From Atribacterota bacterium (GTDB lineage: Bacteria; Atribacterota; Phoenicimicrobiia; Phoenicimicrobiales; Stramentimicrobiaceae): a stretch of 64,000 nucleotides of DNA. The translations under genes and the position numbers were made by a program. The notes under the pieces are model-generated. The model was given only the letters and a program-made list of their open reading frames with translations, made no database searches and was not told where the DNA came from. The DNA is taken from assembly GCA_040767965.1 (NCBI GenBank), contig JAXGNR010000004.1, forward strand, positions 288,001-352,000, read 5' to 3'. Shown here one piece after another: positions 53,076 through 63,779 of the stretch (its first letter is position 1; each line of letters starts with the position of its first letter).

Positions 53076-54653
53076 TTAAAAAACATTTATTTTACCATCT
53101 AAAAAGGTATCTTTACTTAATTGTATTTGTCGAAAAATCTGCATAGCTACCGGAAGACAGTTCATTATATCACTAGCAATCATGCCGTCTTCACCTTTTT
53201 TTCTGGCAGCAAGATCTCCTGCAAATCCGTGAATTAAAACGGCTTCTCTGACAGCTGATTCAAGAGGGAGACCTAAACTGAATACGGCAGCGATAATCCC
53301 TGTAAGCACATCGCCCGAACCAGCAGTAGCCATGCCGCTGTTACCAGTCAAATTGAGAAAAACTTTGCCTTCTGGTGTGCATATTAGCGAATGGGCTCCT
53401 TTTAAAACAGCAAAACAATTATGCTTTTGGGTAAAATCTTGCATAAAGTTAACAGCTTCCACTTTAATTTCATCAGTTGATTTTTTAAGCAGTCTTGACA
53501 TTTCCCCTATGTGTGGAGTTAAAATAGTTGGAGAAATACGATTGTTCAGAATATTGATATTCTCACTTAACACTGTTAAGGCATCTCCATCAAGTAAAAG
53601 AGGTTTTTCAATATCAATAATCAATTTTTTTATTAATTGCCTGGTTTCATGTTCAACAGACAACCCCGGCCCCAATACCACCATATTTGATTCTGCTGAC
53701 CTTTTTAGCAATTCATCATAATTTTCAAGAGCAATAGTACCGCTATTGGTTTCTTTTTGAGGCAAATACACAACCTCTTTAGCCTGTGTACCAATATAGG
53801 GGACAATAGAAGATGGTGCGGCTAAGAGTGAATATCCGCCACCACATTTTAAGAAAGATAATGATGAAAAAACAGGAGCTCCAAGATAGTTTCTAGCACC
53901 TGATATAAAAAGAGTTTTACCAAAAGTACCTTTATGGCCATTTACTGGCCTTGCAGGCAGAGGAGAAGGGGTATTTAGTTCTATTTTCAATTCTTCTTTA
54001 TTATATAAAGCTGGAGGGAAAGAAATATGAGAGATATGTAATTTCCCACAATAAGAAAAACCCGGGTAGAGGAGATTGCCAATCTTAGGTAGGCCAAAAG
54101 TTATAGTATGATCAGCCTTTATGGCAATTCCCATTATTTGACCATTATCTCCGTTAATACCTGAGGGTATATCTATACTGATTACTGGTTGTTTATGATG
54201 GTGATTAATAAAACTGATAATCTGATAATAGATTCCTTCGATATCTTTTTGTAAACCGGTACCAAACATTGCATCAACAATAATACTGTTTGGGTTAATG
54301 TTTGCTTTTGCTGTTTCCAATACTATTTTGGTAAAGACAGGTATTTGTAATTTCTTTACTATTTCCCAGTTTTTTAAGGCAGCTCTTCTATATTTAAGAG
54401 GATCATTAATAATAAATAAGCATACTTTTGCGCCACATGAATGTAATTTCCTGGCTAAAACCAGACCATCTCCGCCATTATTGCCAGTTCCGCAAAAAAT
54501 AGAAAAAGAAGTATTTTTGATTTTAAAATATTCAGCTATTACCTGATATGCTGCCAAGCCGGCGTTTTCCATTAAAATATCTTCAGTAAAGCCATATTTA
54601 TTGATAGCCTCCTGATCCATATTTTGCATTTCTCTAACAAATGTTAATTTCAT
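53076..54653 (-). CDS. nnr: Bifunctional NAD(P)H-hydrate epimerase/dehydratase
   Basis: YjeF-N motifs LMENAG, GNNGGDG, DAMFGTG and DIPSG; kinase-like motifs HKGTFG, GPGL, DGDAL, TPH.GE and MATAGSGDVLTG. Confidence 0.96.
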   Translation of the reverse strand: MKLTFVREMQNMDQEAINKYGFTEDILMENAGLAAYQVIAEYFKIKNTSFSIFCGTGNNGGDGLVLARKLHSCGAKVCLFIINDPLKYRRAALKNWEIVKKLQIPVFTKIVLETAKANINPNSIIVDAMFGTGLQKDIEGIYYQIISFINHHHKQPVISIDIPSGINGDNGQIMGIAIKADHTITFGLPKIGNLLYPGFSYCGKLHISHISFPPALYNKEELKIELNTPSPLPARPVNGHKGTFGKTLFISGARNYLGAPVFSSLSFLKCGGGYSLLAAPSSIVPYIGTQAKEVVYLPQKETNSGTIALENYDELLKRSAESNMVVLGPGLSVEHETRQLIKKLIIDIEKPLLLDGDALTVLSENINILNNRISPTILTPHIGEMSRLLKKSTDEIKVEAVNFMQDFTQKHNCFAVLKGAHSLICTPEGKVFLNLTGNSGMATAGSGDVLTGIIAAVFSLGLPLESAVREAVLIHGFAGDLAARKKGEDGMIASDIMNCLPVAMQIFRQIQLSKDTFLDGKINVF

Positions 54654-54682
54654 TTTAGACCTTTAAGTCATTATTTTAATAA

Positions 54683-54907
54683 TTAATGATTGCATGATGA
54701 ACAGTTTTTACTGTGACAGGAAGCACAGTCTGAAGTATTGGTTGACAAATTGTTTCCTTTACATAAACCAAATCCGTCAAAAATTCTCTTAATGTGATGA
54801 CTACCGCATTTATCACAAATAAAATCACCTTTTTCCATATCTTTTATTGATGCCTTTATTTCTGTTTTAGCAAAACAATCCTGACATTGAAAAGTATAAT
54901 TAGGCAT
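54683..54907 (-). CDS. FmdB-family zinc-ribbon protein
   Basis: MPNYTFQCQDC...CDKCGS..IKR with a C-terminal CASC...CSSC; GGAGG SD. Confidence 0.88.
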   Translation of the reverse strand: MPNYTFQCQDCFAKTEIKASIKDMEKGDFICDKCGSHHIKRIFDGFGLCKGNNLSTNTSDCASCHSKNCSSCNH

Positions 54908-55074
54908 ATCTTAACCTCCAAAGTTAAAGAAAGGGAAATCATACCGCTTAATTTATAATTTTATATTAACTAAAACAAAAATACAATATTTAGAAAATAA
55001 TAGTAAAATCATCTTATTATATTGTGTTTTACAAGAAGAACCACAGTCATTTTTTATAAAAATAGGCATTTGAT

Positions 55075-55102
55075 TTGCTAACCAGGATAAAGATAGTAAA
55101 AT
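55075..55102 (+). promoter_or_regulatory. Putative promoter of the giant-gene operon
   Basis: TTGCTA-16 nt-TAAAAT, ending 44 nt before the ATG. Confidence 0.4.
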
Positions 55103-55146
55103 AGTATTATAATAATTATATTTTTAAGATAAGCAGGAAAAGAAAA

Positions 55147-58100
55147 ATGCAATTATCAAAGGATGATCAAGAATTAAATTTAACCTCAATTGATATCTTA
55201 CAATATTTGAATAAAGATGAAATCCTATTAAGGCATGGCTTAAAACAAAAAGATATTACCGTAATAAAAAAAGATGCTAATTTTAACAAAACCTTAAATA
55301 ATCTGATACAACAAAAAAAATTACAGGCAAAAGATATTTTAAGTTTAGTTATTGGTAAATTGAGGGAAATAGATGAAAATCTTAATACAAAGCAATGGTT
55401 AGAAATGATTTATTATTACTGTCAATTTTTGTCTTTTCCTGAAACAAGCCCGGCAGTTCAAAATATAAATCTTCCCACGAAAAAAATATTTACAATTTTT
55501 CTTTTATTTTATCGATTCCTGGTAATCGAACCTCATCAGCTTCAGAAGAAGTATTCTGCTTCCAGTTATCCTTTATTATTTTTAACTGAGAAAGAAATTT
55601 CTTCCCTGGAACAGCCTGCTGAATATCAAAAATTTTTAGAGGCATATAATAGATTGTTTGTATACGAAATGATGGTCTTAGGAAAAGAGATATTTGGGTA
55701 CAATACATGTGATCATATCTGTGGTGTGCATACTCTAGCTTTAAGCCTGGCGAGACAATTAAAAAGCCAGGGACTGTTTCTGGATTTAGGTATCATATCC
55801 GGAGCCGCTGCCGGACACGATATAGGTAAATATGGGTGTAAAAGCAACGAACAGGAAAAAGTTCCATATTTGCATTATTATTACACTGATATCTGGTTTC
55901 AGAGGCAAAATATTCCTTATATAGGCCATATTGCAGTTAATCATTCTGTTTGGGATCTGGAATTAGAAAACCTTTCTTTAGAGTCCTTGATATTAATATA
56001 CTCAGATTTTCGGGTAAAAAATATTCCCCAAACACAGGAAATGTATATTTATTCCTTACAGGATTCATTTCGAATAATTTTAGAAAAATTAGATAATTTA
56101 GACAGACAAAAAGAGAGAAGGTACAAAAGAGTTTTTGCCAAATTACAGGATTTTGAAGAATTTTTGATTGAAAAGGGGATAGAAACCTGTCCAGTCCTTT
56201 CTGATAACACAAAAAAACAAAAAACAAAAAACAGTGTTTCCTATTCTTTACTGCATGGTGAAGAAATTATTAAACACCTCAAGCAACTGTCTTTAGAGCA
56301 CAGTTTTAATTTAATGTATCAGCTGAGAAATGAGCCTGCTGTTAATTCAATATTAGAACTTGCTCGAAGTGAAAAGAATTGGCAGAATATTCAGGATTAT
56401 TTAAGAATATTTTCTGAATATTCAACTTACCTTAATCAAAAAGAAAAATTATTCACTTTAAGATTTTTATATGAAAAACTAATTTTTCCGGAAGAAGGAA
56501 TAAGAAGAAGAAGTGCTAAATTAATTGGCTATTTAATTGCCGGTTTTGATGAAAAATATCGTAAAGAGATACCTGAAAATGTAGAGATAATATCATCTAA
56601 AATAAAAAGCTATAACTTGTTAGGGAAATATATTCAAGAAATTATTGAGCCTAAACATAAGGTTCCTGAAATGATTTATGCCAGAGTAAGAGAAAATCTT
56701 GCTTTTGTATTTGAGGCCTTGTTTGAGAAAAGTCAGGGACGTCAAATAAGGGATTTCAGAAGGGTTATCAATGGAATATATAAAAAGTATACTTATAAAC
56801 AGATTTCTAAAGATAAGGCAGTTTGTCTATTACAGGCTATCAGATATATCCCGTTCTTATTAAATGAAAATATAGATTCTGTTTTAGTAGATTTTCTAGA
56901 CCAATTTATCGAACATAAAGATGATATTTTGAGATTGAATTCCCTCTCTGTTATTGAAGAAATTATAGATAAATTACCGGAAAAAGATCCTTTTCGAGAA
57001 AAATGTCAATTTCTATTAATTAATAAACCTGACAAATCTGTTTTCCCTGTAGAAAATTATCTATGTTACAAATTGCTAACCAAGACAAAGAATAATCAGT
57101 ATTTGCCTAAACGTTTTCAAGAGTATTGTCAGCAGGACAAAGAGAAAATTGATCGAATGTATTTAACCAATTTAAAAACATCTACTGACCCTATAATCAA
57201 AAAAATACAAATTGACATACTTCTAGAAAAGGCAAAAACGGACAGAAAAGAAGCTGTCTATACAGCTCTGCATTTTTGTAATATCCTGAAAGTAAGTAGT
57301 CATGAATCTATCAGAAATTATGCTGGTAAATCCTTAATTAAAATTATCCCATATTTAAATATGGAACATAAAAATGATATTGCAATTGAATTGTTGAAGG
57401 CTTTGGAGATTGATGACTATCAGTATACAAAATATATTCCATATTATTTAGGACAATTAATTCCTTTCTTGCCGCCTGGTGAGATAGATGAATTTATTGC
57501 TGAATTTGAGCAAAAAACAAAAATATCCGATCAGTGGATCAGTGTTCTGCTTTTGAGAACAATTGCTGTGGCTATTAGCAGGTATGCTCCTTATCAAAGC
57601 AGATATAATGAAAGTTCAGAGAAGGTAGAAGATAGATTAAAGAGAATGTTAGGGATTTTGATGAATGGTTTGGTACATCAGGATTCACCGGTAAAAAGGA
57701 TTACTTCACATGCTATAGGCAGAGAGATATTTGCCTCAGAGCATCTCACTCTCAGGGAAAAGAGTGTTATTTTACGTTTTATCGCAAAAAAATTATTAAA
57801 TCTATTGTCCTCTATCTCAATTCAGGACTCACTATTATTTTTTACAAATACTGTTGCATTGCACCAGATATATGTATATATGTCTGATTATATCTTTTTT
57901 GAAGGCTCCTTAAAGCTGGCAGTTCCTACCAAAGTGGCCTTTTTCCCAGGGTCATTTGACCCTTTTTCCACCAGTCATAAAGAAATAGTAAAAGAAATTG
58001 AAAAGATGGGAATAGAAGTATATTTGTCTGTAGATGAGTATTCCTGGTCTAAAAGAACCCAACCTCATCTTTATAGAAAAAATTTAATTAATATGTCAAT

Positions 58101-60144
58101 TGCTGATGAATTAGATGTTTATTTATATCCTGAAAATCTGCCTAATAATATTGCAAATCCTACTAATCTTAAATTACTGAAAAAGCAGTTTCCATTTTCA
58201 AAAATATACATTGTTGCCGGAAGTGATGTATTGTTAAATGCTTCAGCTTATTCAGAAAGCAATAATATCGATTCTATAATGCATTTCCCTCACATTATCT
58301 TTAGCCGAAAACCTTTTCATTTAAGCAGTGAACAAAAAGATAAATATTTATCAATAATGAATAAAATAAAAGCAGAAGTTATTCAATTAAATTTAGAAAC
58401 TCCTTTTGAAGAAATAAGCTCAAGCCTGATAAGAAAAAATATTGATAATCACCGGGATATAACCGGGTTAGTTGATCCTCTTGCAGAAAGATTCATCTAT
58501 CAACACAGTTTATACCAGCGTGAACCCCAATTCAAGGCAACACTGCAAAAAGTTTTTACTGAAATAGAAATAATAGAGAAATTTAAAGATTCTTTTATCC
58601 AATCTTTAGTTGAAGATATATTCCCTGATAATTTGAAGTCGGAAGTGGAAAAATGCTTAAAATTATTAAGGAAAAAACAAAATCCCCGGCTCATTATATT
58701 AAAAGATACTCTCAAAAAAGAAAGGAAACTTGGTTTTGCAGCAGTACACTGGGTAAGGTCAAGTTTGTTTTATCACGAATTTCAGGATAACAATATTACC
58801 CAGTTTATAAGAGATTATGCTACTGGGAGAACTATTATCATAGACGGAGTTTTTATAACAGATAGCATCAAAGATGAACTACATTTAAACCAGCTAAGGC
58901 AAATCATATTAACCCAGACGCTTACTTTTTGTGTGCAAAAAGATTATGATTATGCCATTTTTAAAAATATGATTCCTTTAATGGACAACAAAGGCTTAGT
59001 GGAATTAATGGAGTTGTATGGTTTTACAGAGATACCGGTCAGCAATAAGAATTATCCTATTCTGGCAGTTGATATCCGTAAGCCTAGCACAGTAAATCTG
59101 GATATAGAAACTCTTATAAAAGAGCCTTTTGTAAAGAATAAGAGAATAATTCAGGCAATATACAATGCTCGTAAAAGTATGCTGAAGGCGATGACTCAAT
59201 TATATCCAGGTCATTTGTTGATACCTTTTAATATGGATATTGTTAACCAGTCAATTGTAAAAAAAGTATGTCATGAAAATGGTGTTTCGATTGTACAGAG
59301 CGAAGTTAATGCATCAGGCCCATTGATGTGTGTTCCTTTTGGAAAAATATTACATAAAATGGTTGTCCCCAATACAGTTACAAAGTCATTACATACTGAT
59401 AAAATATTTACACCAGATATGCAACATTTTAAAATCGATGCATTTTCTAATTATATGAGTTTGGAAAACCAGGTAAAAATGATCAAGTCTTTCAATAAGC
59501 CGGTACTATTAATTGATGATTTACTGCACAAAGGATATCGCCTTAAGGCAATCAGTCCTCTTTTACAGAAAGAAAAAATAAAAGTTCATAAAATTATTGT
59601 TGGCTTAATATCAGGAAGAGGAAAAGAATTGGCCATGATGCAAAAACGTTCTGTAGATAGCGCTTATTTTATTCCTAATTTACGAGTATGGTTTAATGAA
59701 AGTGATCTATGCCCTTTTATCGGAGGAGATGGTTTGTTTCGTCAGGAACCGGATCAGGGGAATTTGGTTCGTTCAATCAATATGATTTTACCATATGCCT
59801 ACCCAGTCTTTCTAAAAGGAGTTAAATCAGAGACTATTTATCGTTTTTCTGAAATCAGTATTGAAAATGCCATCAATATTATTCTGGCTTTAGAAGAAGA
59901 ATACCAGGAAATCTATCATCGCAAGTTAACATTAGGACATTTGGGAGAAGTATGCATCTATCCCAGGTATCCTGATCAGGGTAAAAGCATTCACTATGAT
60001 CTTGCCCTGACTGTATCTCTTTACCTGGAAAACAATCTGGAATTATTGCAGAGAAGCTGGGAAAGAGAAAAGAAAGCAAAAAAGGAAGATATGCTACTTT
60101 ATCCCAATTCCCAGGAATTTTCTAATAGAAAGGAGGTTTTATGA
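55147..60144 (+). CDS. 1665-aa multidomain protein: HD + helical repeats + NadD/PPAT-like nucleotidyltransferase + GNAT-like + PRTase-like
   Basis: HD motifs DH...GHDIGK...H...NHS...SD (aa ~188-290); nucleotidyltransferase motifs FPGSFDPFSTSH, IVAGSD and ISSSLIR (aa ~930-1125); GNAT-like GFAAV...IDGVFI...LYGF; PRT-like VLLIDDLLHKG (aa ~1455). Confidence 0.85.
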   Translation: MQLSKDDQELNLTSIDILQYLNKDEILLRHGLKQKDITVIKKDANFNKTLNNLIQQKKLQAKDILSLVIGKLREIDENLNTKQWLEMIYYYCQFLSFPETSPAVQNINLPTKKIFTIFLLFYRFLVIEPHQLQKKYSASSYPLLFLTEKEISSLEQPAEYQKFLEAYNRLFVYEMMVLGKEIFGYNTCDHICGVHTLALSLARQLKSQGLFLDLGIISGAAAGHDIGKYGCKSNEQEKVPYLHYYYTDIWFQRQNIPYIGHIAVNHSVWDLELENLSLESLILIYSDFRVKNIPQTQEMYIYSLQDSFRIILEKLDNLDRQKERRYKRVFAKLQDFEEFLIEKGIETCPVLSDNTKKQKTKNSVSYSLLHGEEIIKHLKQLSLEHSFNLMYQLRNEPAVNSILELARSEKNWQNIQDYLRIFSEYSTYLNQKEKLFTLRFLYEKLIFPEEGIRRRSAKLIGYLIAGFDEKYRKEIPENVEIISSKIKSYNLLGKYIQEIIEPKHKVPEMIYARVRENLAFVFEALFEKSQGRQIRDFRRVINGIYKKYTYKQISKDKAVCLLQAIRYIPFLLNENIDSVLVDFLDQFIEHKDDILRLNSLSVIEEIIDKLPEKDPFREKCQFLLINKPDKSVFPVENYLCYKLLTKTKNNQYLPKRFQEYCQQDKEKIDRMYLTNLKTSTDPIIKKIQIDILLEKAKTDRKEAVYTALHFCNILKVSSHESIRNYAGKSLIKIIPYLNMEHKNDIAIELLKALEIDDYQYTKYIPYYLGQLIPFLPPGEIDEFIAEFEQKTKISDQWISVLLLRTIAVAISRYAPYQSRYNESSEKVEDRLKRMLGILMNGLVHQDSPVKRITSHAIGREIFASEHLTLREKSVILRFIAKKLLNLLSSISIQDSLLFFTNTVALHQIYVYMSDYIFFEGSLKLAVPTKVAFFPGSFDPFSTSHKEIVKEIEKMGIEVYLSVDEYSWSKRTQPHLYRKNLINMSIADELDVYLYPENLPNNIANPTNLKLLKKQFPFSKIYIVAGSDVLLNASAYSESNNIDSIMHFPHIIFSRKPFHLSSEQKDKYLSIMNKIKAEVIQLNLETPFEEISSSLIRKNIDNHRDITGLVDPLAERFIYQHSLYQREPQFKATLQKVFTEIEIIEKFKDSFIQSLVEDIFPDNLKSEVEKCLKLLRKKQNPRLIILKDTLKKERKLGFAAVHWVRSSLFYHEFQDNNITQFIRDYATGRTIIIDGVFITDSIKDELHLNQLRQIILTQTLTFCVQKDYDYAIFKNMIPLMDNKGLVELMELYGFTEIPVSNKNYPILAVDIRKPSTVNLDIETLIKEPFVKNKRIIQAIYNARKSMLKAMTQLYPGHLLIPFNMDIVNQSIVKKVCHENGVSIVQSEVNASGPLMCVPFGKILHKMVVPNTVTKSLHTDKIFTPDMQHFKIDAFSNYMSLENQVKMIKSFNKPVLLIDDLLHKGYRLKAISPLLQKEKIKVHKIIVGLISGRGKELAMMQKRSVDSAYFIPNLRVWFNESDLCPFIGGDGLFRQEPDQGNLVRSINMILPYAYPVFLKGVKSETIYRFSEISIENAINIILALEEEYQEIYHRKLTLGHLGEVCIYPRYPDQGKSIHYDLALTVSLYLENNLELLQRSWEREKKAKKEDMLLYPNSQEFSNRKEVL

Positions 60145-61412
60145 TTTACTACTATCGATATTCCAATAAATTACTTTTTTCAAAGTATAAAATAAAGAAA
60201 CTGGTAACAATAAAAAATGATGATCCGGTTGTCCACCAAAAAAAATTTCTCTATTATCTGGATAGGCAAGAATGGGGAAAAGTAAGTCCTAAAAGCGTCT
60301 TGATTCACCCTGGTCAGTTGAAAGGACAGGAAGATATAAGTATATTAAAAAATACTTATGGTGATAATGATGATTTTGACTGTTTACCTGGCTGGATTAA
60401 AAAAAAGATAAAAGATAGAGAAATTGGCTTTATAAATTATAATCATCCTGGATGGAAGAAAATTCTAAAATGGGAAAAACCGGCCAGGTGGAAGGTAAAT
60501 ATTATTGGTTTAGGTAATGTAGGTGGTACTTTGTTGACTGCATTGCGCTTGATTGGAAGTGAAAAAATTACTGAAATAGGCATTTTTGATACAAATGAAC
60601 AAGCTCTTTCGCGTTGGGAACAAGAAGTAAATCAGATAGTAGATAGCTCCTCAAAAATTGACATGCCTAATGTAAAAATAATTAAAGAAAATAAAATATT
60701 TGAAGCAGATATGGTCATATTCTGTATTTCTATAGGGGTTCCTCCACCAGGACAAAAAATAAAAGATGTTAGAATGATGCAATTTACTGCCAACTCAGGA
60801 ATTATTAATATCTATGCCCAACAAGCTAGAAAGTTAGGTTATAACGGTATTTTTGCAGTTGTTTCCGATCCTGTTGATTTATTGTGCCAAAGTGCTTTTT
60901 TAACAAGCAATCGGAACGAAAAAGGCATTTTGGATGGGGAAGGTCTTAGCCCTGATCAAATTAGAGGATTTGGATTAGGAGTAATGCATGGCAGGGCTGT
61001 TTATTATGCAAATAAAAATAAAAAGACCAGACTTTATCTTGAAAAAGGCCGTGTATTTGGCCCTCATGGAAAAGGGCTGGTTATTGCAGACAATATGGAA
61101 GATTACAACCATCAACAATCAATTGTTTTATCTAAAAAGGTACTGCAGGCAAATATTGCCATCAGAAGAACTGGTTTTAAACCATATATTGCACCGGCTC
61201 TTTCTTCTGGAGCTTTGTCAGTACTGGCTTTAATAAGTGGAGACTGGCATTATAGTGCAGCTTTTCTGGGAGGAATATTTTGGGGTGCTAAAAATAGACA
61301 AACCTCTCTCGGTTTGGAGTGGGAGCAGAACAGCATATCAACGGATTTATTTGAAAGAATAAACAATAGTTATCAATATCTTAAAAAATTAGCCCAAAAT
61401 TTGGAAAAATAA
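60141..61412 (+). CDS. Diverged lactate/malate dehydrogenase-fold protein with N-terminal extension
   Basis: Rossmann motif IIGLGNVG, plus ADMVIF, VVSDPVD and FGPHG; ATGA overlap with the upstream gene and AGGAGG SD. Confidence 0.8.
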   Translation: MIYYYRYSNKLLFSKYKIKKLVTIKNDDPVVHQKKFLYYLDRQEWGKVSPKSVLIHPGQLKGQEDISILKNTYGDNDDFDCLPGWIKKKIKDREIGFINYNHPGWKKILKWEKPARWKVNIIGLGNVGGTLLTALRLIGSEKITEIGIFDTNEQALSRWEQEVNQIVDSSSKIDMPNVKIIKENKIFEADMVIFCISIGVPPPGQKIKDVRMMQFTANSGIINIYAQQARKLGYNGIFAVVSDPVDLLCQSAFLTSNRNEKGILDGEGLSPDQIRGFGLGVMHGRAVYYANKNKKTRLYLEKGRVFGPHGKGLVIADNMEDYNHQQSIVLSKKVLQANIAIRRTGFKPYIAPALSSGALSVLALISGDWHYSAAFLGGIFWGAKNRQTSLGLEWEQNSISTDLFERINNSYQYLKKLAQNLEK

Positions 61413-61480
61413 AAAAATAACATATAATAAAAAAACTAAAAATAAAAAACTTGTCATAAAGGAATTGTCAGGAGGGGAAA

Positions 61481-62020
61481 ATGAAAGCTTTATTGATAAT
61501 TGATGTGCAAAATGATTTTATTAGAAATGGTTCTCTTGCAGTCAACAAAGCTGAAAGGATTATTCCAATTATAAATAAGTTATTACAAAAGTTTGATTAT
61601 AGTATGGCCTCTAAGGATTGTCACCCCCAGGAATCTGTTCATTTTAAAAAATGGCCACCTCATTGTGTTGCAGGTACAACAGGGGCTGCTTTCCCTTTTG
61701 ATTTAGATCAAGAAAAAATAAATCAAATTCTATATAAAGGAACCAGCAATAAAGATGATGGATATTCAGCATTTGAGGCCAACAATATAAACTTGATAGA
61801 ACATCTACAAGAAAAAGGAATAACTGACTTATACATTTGTGGAATAGCATTAGAGTTTTGCGTGAAATCCACAGTTCTGGATGCCTTAGAAAAAAGACTT
61901 AATGTCTATATGTTAAAAGATGCCATTGCTCCTTTTTCTGAAAAAGAAGAAGAGATTAAACAGTATTATTCTGAATTGGAAAATGCAGGTGCAAAAATTA
62001 TTTCCTCAACAGCAGTATAA
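61481..62020 (+). CDS. pncA: Nicotinamidase/pyrazinamidase
   Basis: Motifs IIDVQNDF..GSL, D.HP, WPPHCVAGT.GA, KG...DGYSAF and GIALEFCVKST. Confidence 0.92.
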   Translation: MKALLIIDVQNDFIRNGSLAVNKAERIIPIINKLLQKFDYSMASKDCHPQESVHFKKWPPHCVAGTTGAAFPFDLDQEKINQILYKGTSNKDDGYSAFEANNINLIEHLQEKGITDLYICGIALEFCVKSTVLDALEKRLNVYMLKDAIAPFSEKEEEIKQYYSELENAGAKIISSTAV

Positions 62021-62145: not shown

Positions 62146-62790
62146 ATGAATTCTTCAGTTAAATACCAACAAACTATTGAGATGCCGGTACAAATAAAAA
62201 ATATCATTAAAAAAAGCCGTTTTATAGCAACAGTAAAAGAAGTTGAAAAAGAAGATGAAATAAAACAGTTTTTAAAAGAAATAACACAGGAATTCCCGGA
62301 TGCAAATCATCATTGCTGGGCCTATCAAATTGGCTATACCAATAGATCCCTGTCCCATTATTCTGATGGGGGAGAACCAGCTAATTCTGCTGGTCCTCCT
62401 ATTTTACAAGCGATTAGAAAAGAAATGGTAACAAATGTAATGGTAATTGTAACCCGTTATTTTGGAGGAATAAAACTGGGAATCAGCGGACTAATCAAAG
62501 CTTATAGGGAAACAGCGTTAATAGGCATTCAATCAGCAGGAAAAATTAAAAAATATCCCCTGAGAGAGTACATTTTCGAAAATATTGATTATCAAATTCT
62601 GGGTAATATAATACAGTTAATAGAAAGTCAGTCTGGCAGAATAGAAAAAATAGATTACCGAGAAAAAGTAAAAATAATGGTTCTTCTGCCAGACAATTTA
62701 AAGGAATGGCTTGTCAGTAATCTTTATAATTTTTCTCAGGGCAATATACATATTAACCAGGGAGAGATTCATTGGTTCAGTAAAAAATAA
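62146..62790 (+). CDS. YigZ/IMPACT family protein
   Basis: Motifs IKKSRFI, ANHHCWAY, SDGGEP..SAG.P and VTRYFGGIKLG..GL..AY. Confidence 0.93.
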   Translation: MNSSVKYQQTIEMPVQIKNIIKKSRFIATVKEVEKEDEIKQFLKEITQEFPDANHHCWAYQIGYTNRSLSHYSDGGEPANSAGPPILQAIRKEMVTNVMVIVTRYFGGIKLGISGLIKAYRETALIGIQSAGKIKKYPLREYIFENIDYQILGNIIQLIESQSGRIEKIDYREKVKIMVLLPDNLKEWLVSNLYNFSQGNIHINQGEIHWFSKK

Positions 62791-62855
62791 AATAATAAGT
62801 AAATATTTAAAATAAAATAAATATTTCAAACTGGATCTGATTAGAGGTAAAAAAG

Positions 62856-63347
62856 ATGAAAATATTAATAACATATTATTCTCGTTCCGGTAAGACAGAA
62901 AAAATCGCTGAACAGGTTGCTCTTAAAATTAATGCAGAACTCCAAAAAATTAGTGATCAAAAAAACAGGGCAGGCATTTTTGGTTTTATTTCCAGCGGTA
63001 ATGAAGCTTATCTCAAACAAACAACAACTATTGATAAATTAGAAAAAGATCCGGCTAATTTTGATCTAATAATTATAGGTACCCCCGTTTGGGCTGGCAA
63101 TGTATCATCTCCTGTGAGAAGTTTTTTACAGGAATACAATTCTAAATTTAAAAAAGTTGCCTTCTTCTGTACCAGTATGGGTTCAGATCCCGGTCCGATA
63201 TTTTCAGCAATGGAAAAGCTGGCAACTCAAAAGCCCCTAGCCGTTATGAATGTTACAGCCCGTGACATGAAAAAGCATTTTCAGAAAGAACTGATCGCCG
63301 ATTTTGTTGCTTTAATTGGAAAACAAAGCAATGATGGATATATATGA
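62856..63347 (+). CDS. Flavodoxin-family protein
   Basis: Motifs YYSRSGKTE, IGTPVW and VAFFCT. Confidence 0.88.
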   Translation: MKILITYYSRSGKTEKIAEQVALKINAELQKISDQKNRAGIFGFISSGNEAYLKQTTTIDKLEKDPANFDLIIIGTPVWAGNVSSPVRSFLQEYNSKFKKVAFFCTSMGSDPGPIFSAMEKLATQKPLAVMNVTARDMKKHFQKELIADFVALIGKQSNDGYI

Positions 63348-63374
63348 TAAGAAAGATGAGAAAAACAATATGTT

Positions 63375-63779
63375 ATGATAAGTAAAAAAGAATTTGAAGA
63401 ATTAGTGGAAAAAGCTATAAGTGAACTGCCATTCTATTTTAGAGAAAAAATGGAAAATATTGCCATCTATGTAGAAGAGTTTCCCGATCAGGATATGCTC
63501 CAGAAGCTTGGGCATAAATCTCCATATTCGCTTTTGGGTATCTATCAGGGAGTTCCAGTAACTCGCCGTGGAATTCATTATAGGAATGTCATGCCTGATC
63601 GGATTACTATTTTTCGTAAACCAATCTTAAGAAAAAACAACAATATTGCAGATCTTAAAAATGATATAAAAAGAGTAGTTATGCATGAAATCGGTCATTA
63701 TTTTGGATTAAATGACTATGATCTCTTTTTAATAGAAAAAGAACATTTCAATAAAAACAATTCCAGCAATGAAAGCTAA
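63375..63779 (+). CDS. Zincin-like minimal metallopeptidase
   Basis: Motifs LLGIYQG.P, PDRITIFR.PI and VVMHEIGHYFG. Confidence 0.88.
   Translation: MISKKEFEELVEKAISELPFYFREKMENIAIYVEEFPDQDMLQKLGHKSPYSLLGIYQGVPVTRRGIHYRNVMPDRITIFRKPILRKNNNIADLKNDIKRVVMHEIGHYFGLNDYDLFLIEKEHFNKNNSSNES

Follow-up and report, generated by a model that had tools for sequence, protein, structure and literature searches.

A 2022 mBio report (PMC9426524) describes NadD and YqeK of Firmicutes and mycoplasmas, paired or fused, in which a nicotinate mononucleotide (NaMN) adenylyltransferase is combined with a diphosphatase of the HD type. This is one of the described systems that come closest to the locus considered here; others are the Preiss-Handler pathway of nicotinamide adenine dinucleotide (NAD) salvage (PncA, PncB or nicotinate phosphoribosyltransferase (NAPRTase), NadD, NadE), the L-lactate and malate dehydrogenases (LDH and MDH; PF00056), and the iron-sulfur (Fe-S) flavoproteins and NADPH-dependent FMN reductases (PF03358). 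The locus lies in a stretch of 64,000 nucleotides from an Atribacterota bacterium (the window; positions 288,001 to 352,000 of contig JAXGNR010000004.1), and its centre is a gene of 1665 codons, the giant gene, whose product contains a nucleotidyltransferase domain of the NadD fold. An earlier reading made from the DNA letters (the sequence-only reading) had joined five neighbouring genes, nnr, FmdB, the giant gene, an LDH-like gene and pncA, into a single candidate NAD-centred system. Our conclusion is that the five genes are not one system and that the NAD-salvage unit is not real. With regard to architecture and evolution, the region is very probably the housekeeping neighbourhood of one Atribacterota family with a dispensable cassette that occupies the place between FmdB and pncA. 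The housekeeping part would be the FmdB-nnr pair, divergent from the series pncA, yigZ, flavodoxin and zincin, genes that adjoin one another whether the giant gene is present or not; the cassette would be the giant gene and the LDH-like dehydrogenase gene, the usual third gene, for an Fe-S flavoprotein, being absent here. The cassette itself, an uncharacterised unit, is strongly conserved and widespread in anaerobic Clostridia and one order of Atribacterota.

Each of the described systems shares only part of its features with this locus. As in NadD-YqeK, an adenylyltransferase of the NadD fold is encoded together with an HD phosphohydrolase, and the idea of a hydrolase that edits the work of a transferase is taken from that pair (PMC9426524). 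In contrast to it, the two domains of the giant protein are far from the NadD and YqeK models and are kept apart by a HEAT/ARM solenoid of about 580 residues, domains of the GNAT fold and of a phosphoribosyltransferase-like (PRT-like) type and two conserved redox partner genes are added, and a genuine nadD-yqeK operon is found elsewhere in the genome. The order of a phosphoribosyltransferase followed by an adenylyltransferase, with a nicotinamidase adjoining in the window, recalls the Preiss-Handler pathway; however, NAPRTase is a type II phosphoribosyltransferase, whereas the domain of the giant protein is type-I-like and weakly supported, and pncA stands outside the conserved unit. The LDH-like partner has the Rossmann NAD-binding domain of LDH and MDH and invariant R211, R285 and H309, but differs from them in a 115-residue N-terminal extension, in Met282, in scores far under the equivalog cut-offs and in occurring together with the giant protein (two orphans apart). 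The third gene resembles the PF03358 flavoproteins in its C-terminal FMN_red domain and four invariant cysteines, and is unlike them in an extra N-terminal domain of about 160 residues. In public records members of the giant family are labelled 'nicotinate-nucleotide adenylyltransferase' or 'cytidyltransferase', and we found no published account of the family in the open-access full-text literature. Such a NadD-like label, with pncA and nnr beside the giant gene, invites the reading of a new NAD-salvage system, which the comparative data do not support.

The genes of the locus and the intervals between them are as follows (positions are those of the window).

55147-60144, plus strand: giant gene, first of the cassette; 1665 amino acids, open frame
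60141-61412, plus strand: LDH-like gene, second of the cassette; 423 amino acids, LDH/MDH-like dehydrogenase with a 115-residue N-terminal extension
61413-61480, no strand: gap between the LDH-like gene and pncA; 68 nucleotides, A-rich; relatives carry a gene for an Fe-S flavoprotein of about 350 amino acids there
53076-54653, minus strand: nnr; 525 amino acids, bifunctional NAD(P)HX epimerase/dehydratase; local synteny block, outside the conserved cassette
54683-54907, minus strand: FmdB zinc ribbon; 74 amino acids, with nnr 29 nucleotides downstream on the same strand
54908-55146, no strand: divergent intergenic region between FmdB and the giant gene; 239 nucleotides, AT-rich
61481-62020, plus strand: pncA-like nicotinamidase; 179 amino acids; local synteny block, outside the cassette
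62146-63779, after pncA: YigZ/IMPACT, short flavodoxin and Zincin_1 genes

We have compared 9 genome loci of the family to which the window belongs (f1), 12 of its sister family (f2) and 55 metagenome loci down to 36% identity, restricting each count to loci with enough flanking DNA (at least 1400 nucleotides downstream in the case of the LDH-like gene). The LDH-like gene lies directly 3' of the giant gene in 8/8 f1, 12/12 f2 and 43/43 metagenome loci, or 63/63 overall, and the two genes occur together in 41 of 86 Atribacterota genomes; the proposal that the LDH-fold protein is the partner of the giant protein is thus upheld. The Fe-S flavoprotein gene occupies the third place in 8/8 f1, 11/12 f2 and 33/35 metagenome loci. 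The NAD-related genes are distributed differently: pncA is near the giant gene in 7/8 f1 loci, 0/11 f2 loci and 1/34 metagenome loci (an f1-like contig), and nnr in 7/7, 0/6 and 0/35, respectively, so that beyond the f1 genomes pncA is near the cassette in 1 of 45 loci and nnr in none of 41. Across distant loci only the three cassette genes recur, and no NAD-pathway gene does so outside f1. Since nnr and pncA are near the cassette only in f1, the inclusion of nnr, FmdB and pncA in the unit is not sustained. Moreover, the f1 block (pepF, LiaF-like, orf197, nnr, FmdB, cassette, pncA, YigZ, flavodoxin, zincin) is wholly syntenic and includes genes of unrelated kinds (pepF, LiaF-like, YigZ, flavodoxin, zincin), and all f1 loci therefore count as one evolutionary event. 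In 8/8 f1 relatives the third gene separates the LDH-like gene from pncA; their adjacency across 68 nucleotides in the window arises because the flavoprotein gene is absent. The order YigZ-flavodoxin-zincin 3' of pncA is constant in all f1 genomes examined, with or without the cassette.

The distribution of the cassette among the 86 Atribacterota genomes is consistent with this division. The giant gene is present in 43 and the LDH-like gene in 43, with both in 41 and neither in 41; the two genomes that have the giant gene only are both cut at contig ends, and two others have the LDH-like gene only. In families f3-f7 cassette genes occur in 0/34 genomes. Most f1 members have the full cassette, and within one f1 genus successive states can be recognized at the same site: the full cassette in G079, G083 and G084, the LDH-like gene only in G080 and G081 (giant and flavoprotein genes gone), and no cassette in G077, G078, G082 and G085; in these four, FmdB-nnr and pncA are immediate divergent neighbours with gaps of 278-303 nucleotides. 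The window represents a further state, with the giant and LDH-like genes present and the flavoprotein gene absent. Because FmdB-nnr adjoins pncA in the four cassette-less relatives, the cassette sits between genes that are neighbours anyway; it is dispensable. The sequence-only reading had itself proposed that adjacency to pncA and nnr be compared across genomes and that canonical pncB and nadD be sought in this one. The adjacency is not conserved in other lineages and, as described below, canonical NAPRTase and nadD genes are both present, which are two of the three outcomes that it had listed as contrary to it.

The LDH-like protein reaches 35.3 bits with Pfam Ldh_1_N (PF00056; cut-off 27), its NAD-binding domain being the only part that passes Pfam, and its residues 116-275 align with MDH and LDH structures. 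It remains far under the LDH/MDH equivalog cut-offs (TIGR01771, 38.2 bits vs 303.55; NF004863, 35.2 vs 283). Its invariant residues include G125, V127, G128, R211, R285, H309 and Met282; on LDH numbering we take R211 to be the loop Arg, R285 the substrate Arg and H309 the catalytic His, with Met282 presumably in place of the Asp to which this His is paired in LDH. A total of 43 invariant columns were defined among 53 cassette-linked LDH-like proteins, of which the window protein keeps 42. The orphan genes of the two genomes that have lost the giant gene (L117:1521-2789 in G080; L118:8469-9740 in G081) keep 33/43 and 35/43, respectively (10 and 8 lost), with R211 lost in both and H309 in one; their reading frames are still open, and by their sequence they appear to be pseudogenes in the making. 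Functional interdependence of the giant and LDH-like proteins is shown indirectly by such sequence comparisons. The predicted complex of giant residues 1128-1665 with the LDH-like protein scored 0.00, a value that carries no weight either way.

The Fe-S flavoprotein that forms the third member of the cassette in relatives has about 350 amino acids, with a C-terminal FMN_red domain (66-76 bits), four invariant cysteines in a compact motif, and about 160 N-terminal residues that match no family. A tblastn search with the cluster open reading frames of 46 loci gave 0 flavoprotein matches in the whole 98%-complete genome to which the window belongs. Three other loci (L049, L085 and L091) are also without a flavoprotein gene 3' of the LDH-like gene and have intact giant genes. 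Of the 147 columns on which 54 other full-length members agree without exception, the window giant protein retains 142, the five changes being conservative; given this and the 42 of 43 columns kept by its partner, the pair looks functional without the flavoprotein.

The genes flanking the cassette are members of their families. Both domains of nnr exceed the NCBIfam cut-offs (TIGR00197, 166.4 bits vs 88.6; TIGR00196, 188.5 vs 129.85) and are also found by Pfam (YjeF_N, 173 bits; Carb_kinase, 156.6 bits), and FmdB passes TIGR02605 with 33.3 bits vs 31.3, so that the divergent unit does encode a zinc ribbon and NAD(P)HX repair, as had been supposed. The pncA product has 93.1 bits vs 27 with Pfam Isochorismatase (PF00857), and its residues 2-174 align end to end with the solved pyrazinamidase/nicotinamidase 1ilw (E 1.1e-32); it falls below the E. 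coli-type equivalog PRK11609 (120 vs 174).

Canonical enzymes of the Preiss-Handler pathway are encoded elsewhere in the same genome. NAPRTase is a separate protein of 344 amino acids (NF006415, 478.5 bits vs 243); PF04095 gave no match in the genome, a miss of model coverage, as the enzyme was recovered through QRPTase_C and NF006415. The genuine nadD (NF000840, 243.8 bits vs 150; TIGR00482, 179.7) is in one operon with yqeK (TIGR00488, 142.9 bits vs 70.15), and no PnuC was found in the genome. Since the organism has its own NAPRTase, NadD and YqeK, the cassette is no stand-in for Preiss-Handler salvage, and the proposal that the locus replaces it is not supported.

To describe the giant protein we aligned it with 28 diverse relatives (29 members) and predicted its structure as two halves, with mean predicted local distance difference test (pLDDT) scores of 85.8 for the N-terminal half (model m6bf92edb190b) and 85.0 for the C-terminal half, and predicted template-modelling (pTM) scores of 0.82 and 0.85, respectively. 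With the single sequence Pfam recognizes CTP_transf_like only; on the combined evidence the protein has five domains.

55594-56181, plus strand: HD phosphohydrolase-like domain, about residues 150-345; invariant H190, H224-D225, H243, H266, D270 and D287
56182-57918, plus strand: HEAT/ARM-like solenoid, about residues 346-924; all-helical
57919-58530, plus strand: NadD/NMNAT-fold nucleotidyltransferase domain, residues 925-1128; motifs FPGSFDPFSTSH and ISSSLIR
58549-59082, plus strand: GNAT-fold domain, residues 1135-1312
59212-60078, plus strand: type-I-PRT-like domain, about residues 1356-1644; PVLLIDDLLHKGYR; D1457, D1458, G1463 and R1465 invariant

Pfam HD is matched by 10 of the 29 members (best 4e-5), and a comparison of the HD sub-profile with Protein Data Bank (PDB) sequences gives the HD structure 1xx7, aligned across the H...HD motif, at E 0.056. 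In a fold search with the N-terminal model all listed matches are solenoid proteins. We also tried YqeK as an identity for this domain and rejected it (no TIGR00488 match; hhalign probability 0.1 against the YqeK of the same genome). Beyond residue 372 the N-terminal model contains only helices; the proteins found with it by Foldseek are designed ARM proteins, importin-alpha, CAND1, PP2A and SF3b (E 4e-6 to 5e-4), and Pfam HEAT is matched by 17/29 members. The nucleotidyltransferase domain has the Rossmann-like fold of NadD/NMNAT. NadD proteins carry an N-terminal motif of the (H/T)xGH type and a C-terminal ISSTxxR motif. In the giant family the first motif has invariant G935, F937, D938, P939, F940 and H944, the first His of the NadD motif being replaced, and the second has invariant I1090, S1091, S1092, I1095 and R1096. 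The scores are well under the NadD equivalog cut-offs (TIGR00482, 45.6 bits vs 112.45; NF000840, 38.8 vs 150).

Residues 1135-1312 adopt a GNAT fold; no Pfam acetyltransferase match was obtained in the 29 members, and the sub-profile of this domain found one PDB sequence, at chance level. The PRPP (phosphoribosyl pyrophosphate)-binding motif of type I phosphoribosyltransferases consists of a hydrophobic strand, two acidic residues and then a phosphate-binding loop. In the PRT-like domain an invariant DD lies within VLLIDDLLHKGYR, and HKGYR stands in place of the usual TG-T loop. Pfam Pribosyltran is matched by 5/29 members at E≤0.1 (best 6e-5), a hypoxanthine-guanine phosphoribosyltransferase (HGPRT) model and an HGPRT structure are matched weakly (TIGR01203 HGPRTase, E 0.0046; 4rqa, E 0.013), and the model shows a beta-alpha-beta core with pLDDT of about 90. 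There is no match in the giant protein to the type II NAPRTase/PncB models (PF04095, NF006415). Of the two domain classes that the sequence-only reading had assigned to the giant protein, a NadD-fold domain and a type-I-PRT-like domain are thus present, but the former does not reach the equivalog level of NadD.

Homologues of the giant protein number at least 811 at E≤0.001 among 8000 candidates scored. Among the 120 matches listed nearly all have about 1630-1670 amino acids and align end to end, and their sources are Atribacterota and Clostridia (Alkaliphilus, Caloramator, Crassaminicella, Tepidibacter, Caminicella); members are 36-64% identical over about 1650 residues. A HMMER search with the C-terminal 536 residues against 1.84 billion representatives gave 380 proteins, nearly all of the same architecture or fragments of it, and the ESM Atlas matches were confined to clusters of this family and to unnamed look-alikes with about 450-506 amino acids. 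In a FastTree phylogeny of 40 giant proteins, rooted at the midpoint only, the Atribacterota rows (f1 and f2) fall into a single clade (support 100) surrounded by rows from named Clostridia, and the f1 stem is long (0.6). With this rooting the tree fits a single acquisition of the giant gene by the Atribacterota order.

Split and shortened forms of the giant architecture also exist: a stand-alone protein of 457 amino acids in Bacillota (P0186; P0274-P0285) corresponds to the GNAT-fold plus PRT-like half, with 38% identity, 61 cluster members and contigs of up to 797 kb, and in a form of 1259 amino acids (P0235) the HD domain is apparently missing. One f1 relative has a single in-frame TAA in its giant gene (G073:C127:11076-15956), which may reflect an error of sequencing or the recent origin of a pseudogene. 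A contig of 1970 nucleotides binned as 'uncultured Hyphomicrobiales' (L015) encodes a fragment 73% identical to giant residues 930-1584, and is most likely a misbinned Atribacterota contig.

What the cassette does can be proposed only tentatively. A possible mechanism, to which we would give clearly less than even chances, is a sequence of ribosylation, adenylylation and editing, in company with redox partners. The PRT-like domain would join an acceptor to the ribose 5-phosphate of PRPP, the NadD-fold domain would adenylylate the resulting mononucleotide to a dinucleotide, and the HD domain would hydrolyse or proofread nucleotide products, as YqeK does for NadD. The LDH-like protein and the flavoprotein would either act as redox enzymes on that small molecule or make use of it.

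A number of observations weigh against the interpretation put forward here, in its architectural or its mechanistic part. The chemistry proposed for the cassette follows from its domain types. In the window giant protein Pfam Pribosyltran (PF00156) has 14 bits vs 26.3, below its gathering score; the profile of the PRT-like domain found 0 PDB sequences at E≤10; and no phosphoribosyltransferase chain is among the best 50 matches of Foldseek or VIA-align with the C-terminal model, which are filled by NadD and GNAT domains. The acyl-CoA pyrophosphate-binding loop of GNAT enzymes has the form Q/R-x-x-G-x-G/A. A conserved Gly-rich loop is not apparent in the alignment consensus of the giant family, whose GNAT-fold domain may be non-catalytic. 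Within f1, NAD-related genes flank the NadD-fold enzyme on both sides, and there may be a real functional link between them and the cassette in that family. Insertion at the f1 site, as opposed to ancestral presence, is inferred by parsimony. Finally, nadE was not found in the 98%-complete assembly with PF02540 or TIGR00552, so that the canonical route is not demonstrably complete here. We have set aside a true pathway gap in favour of what is probably an assembly gap, as nadE is present in 75 of 86 Atribacterota genomes irrespective of the cassette and, in many f1 relatives, lies within about 170 nucleotides of a contig start, which suggests a repeat beside nadE that breaks assemblies. Outside the window, the same genome encodes an unassigned ATP-pyrophosphatase, a PP-loop ATPase of 323 residues (G000:C4:368509-368748; L008:1435-2406) that the GuaA C-terminal, LarE, NAD synthase and TilS models match only weakly, each far below its cut-off.

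Other explanations can be ranked with respect to the same data. The cassette could be a self-contained factory for a novel dinucleotide-type cofactor or signal, which we regard as rather doubtful. In this reading a new mononucleotide would come from the PRT-like domain and be adenylylated by the NadD-fold domain. Editing or recycling of the product would fall to the HD domain and its tailoring or gating to the GNAT-fold domain, with the LDH-like dehydrogenase and the Fe-S flavoprotein making a redox-active head group or serving as dedicated users. The decay of the LDH-like gene where the giant gene is lost fits the obligate partnership that such a factory would require.

It is unlikely, in our judgement, that the giant protein edits, recycles or senses pyridine nucleotides (NaAD, the dinucleotide of nicotinate; NAD; damaged forms) in a non-essential role, as an enlarged analogue of NadD-YqeK, with the position of nnr and pncA reflecting a loose affinity. 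The HD domain is not YqeK-like by either comparison given above, no NAD-pathway gene accompanies the cassette outside f1, and no riboswitch, whether NAD-related or of another kind, was found upstream. This reading also leaves the Fe-S flavoprotein and the PRT-like and GNAT-fold domains without an explanation.

The chances are poorer still that the window cassette is a relic in decay, which stopped working once the flavoprotein gene was lost and is heading for deletion, as happened in sister genomes. In favour of this are the failure to find that gene in a 98%-complete genome, the stepwise loss among relatives and the long f1 stem branch of the giant tree; yet the frame of 1665 codons is intact with nearly all of its invariant columns and only conservative changes, the LDH-like protein has lost a single invariant residue where the true orphans have lost 8 and 10, and L049, L085 and L091 combine the same absence with intact giant genes.

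Least credible of all is the original proposal, that pncA, the giant gene, the LDH-like gene, nnr and FmdB form one system converting nicotinate to NaMN and NaAD by non-orthologous enzymes, in view of the near absence of pncA (1/45) and nnr (0/41) from loci beyond f1, the adjacency of FmdB-nnr and pncA without a cassette in 4 genomes, the extra gene before pncA in 8/8 f1 relatives, the canonical NAPRTase, nadD and yqeK, the 45.6 bits of the nucleotidyltransferase domain vs the NadD cut-off of 112.45, the retention of pncA and nnr by same-genus genomes that lack the cassette, and the occurrence of nadE in 75/86 genomes of the phylum whether or not they have it.

The five genes lie where they had been placed, and both the ATGA overlap and the 68-nucleotide gap are confirmed. 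The ATGA at 60141-60144 joins the TGA stop of the giant gene to the ATG of the LDH-like gene, with AAGGAGG just 5' of it, a configuration that predicts translational coupling of the second gene to the first. A scan of the gap detected no terminator-like hairpin (hairpin plus T). A promoter-like TTGGAA-16-TATAAT was found by sequence scan at 61401-61428, 5' of pncA, which may accordingly be driven by a promoter of its own. In the divergent region 54908-55146 the promoter-like hexamers are weak and there is no Rfam match at E≤1; no riboswitch or leader, NAD-related ones included, was found upstream of the giant gene in the window at that threshold. The only Rfam match at E≤1 in the window, RAGATH-19 at 58511-58633 (plus strand), lies inside the giant coding region and is at chance level (27.4 bits vs a gathering score of 85.6, E 0.85). 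At six distant loci the riboswitch search gave only unrelated T-box, SAM, glycine and tRNA matches, elsewhere than in the giant gene's leader, and in 52 upstream regions no Rex operator was found, the best matches to the Rex consensus having 4-6 mismatches of 14. Public runs contain DNA of the window (20 rows from 12 studies, on metagenomes from landfills, digesters and bioreactors), and 3 runs with small shares are possibly of RNA.

In f2 the cassette has different surroundings (for example in L052, L065 and L078): on its 3' side are genes for an RlmN-like radical S-adenosylmethionine protein and a CT398-like zinc-ribbon protein and mraZ-like and rsmH-like genes, the last two named by eye from sequence, and on its 5' side are NifU-like, NDK and GYD-domain genes, with no NAD gene among those annotated.

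These results remove a tempting but incorrect annotation of NAD salvage from the locus, and leave in its place an uncharacterised enzyme system that is among the larger ones conserved in anaerobes. To the study of this family the window adds a natural series of losses at one site, the degeneration of the dehydrogenase after loss of the giant gene, and a member that apparently works without the flavoprotein, all of which are useful for choosing constructs for biochemistry.

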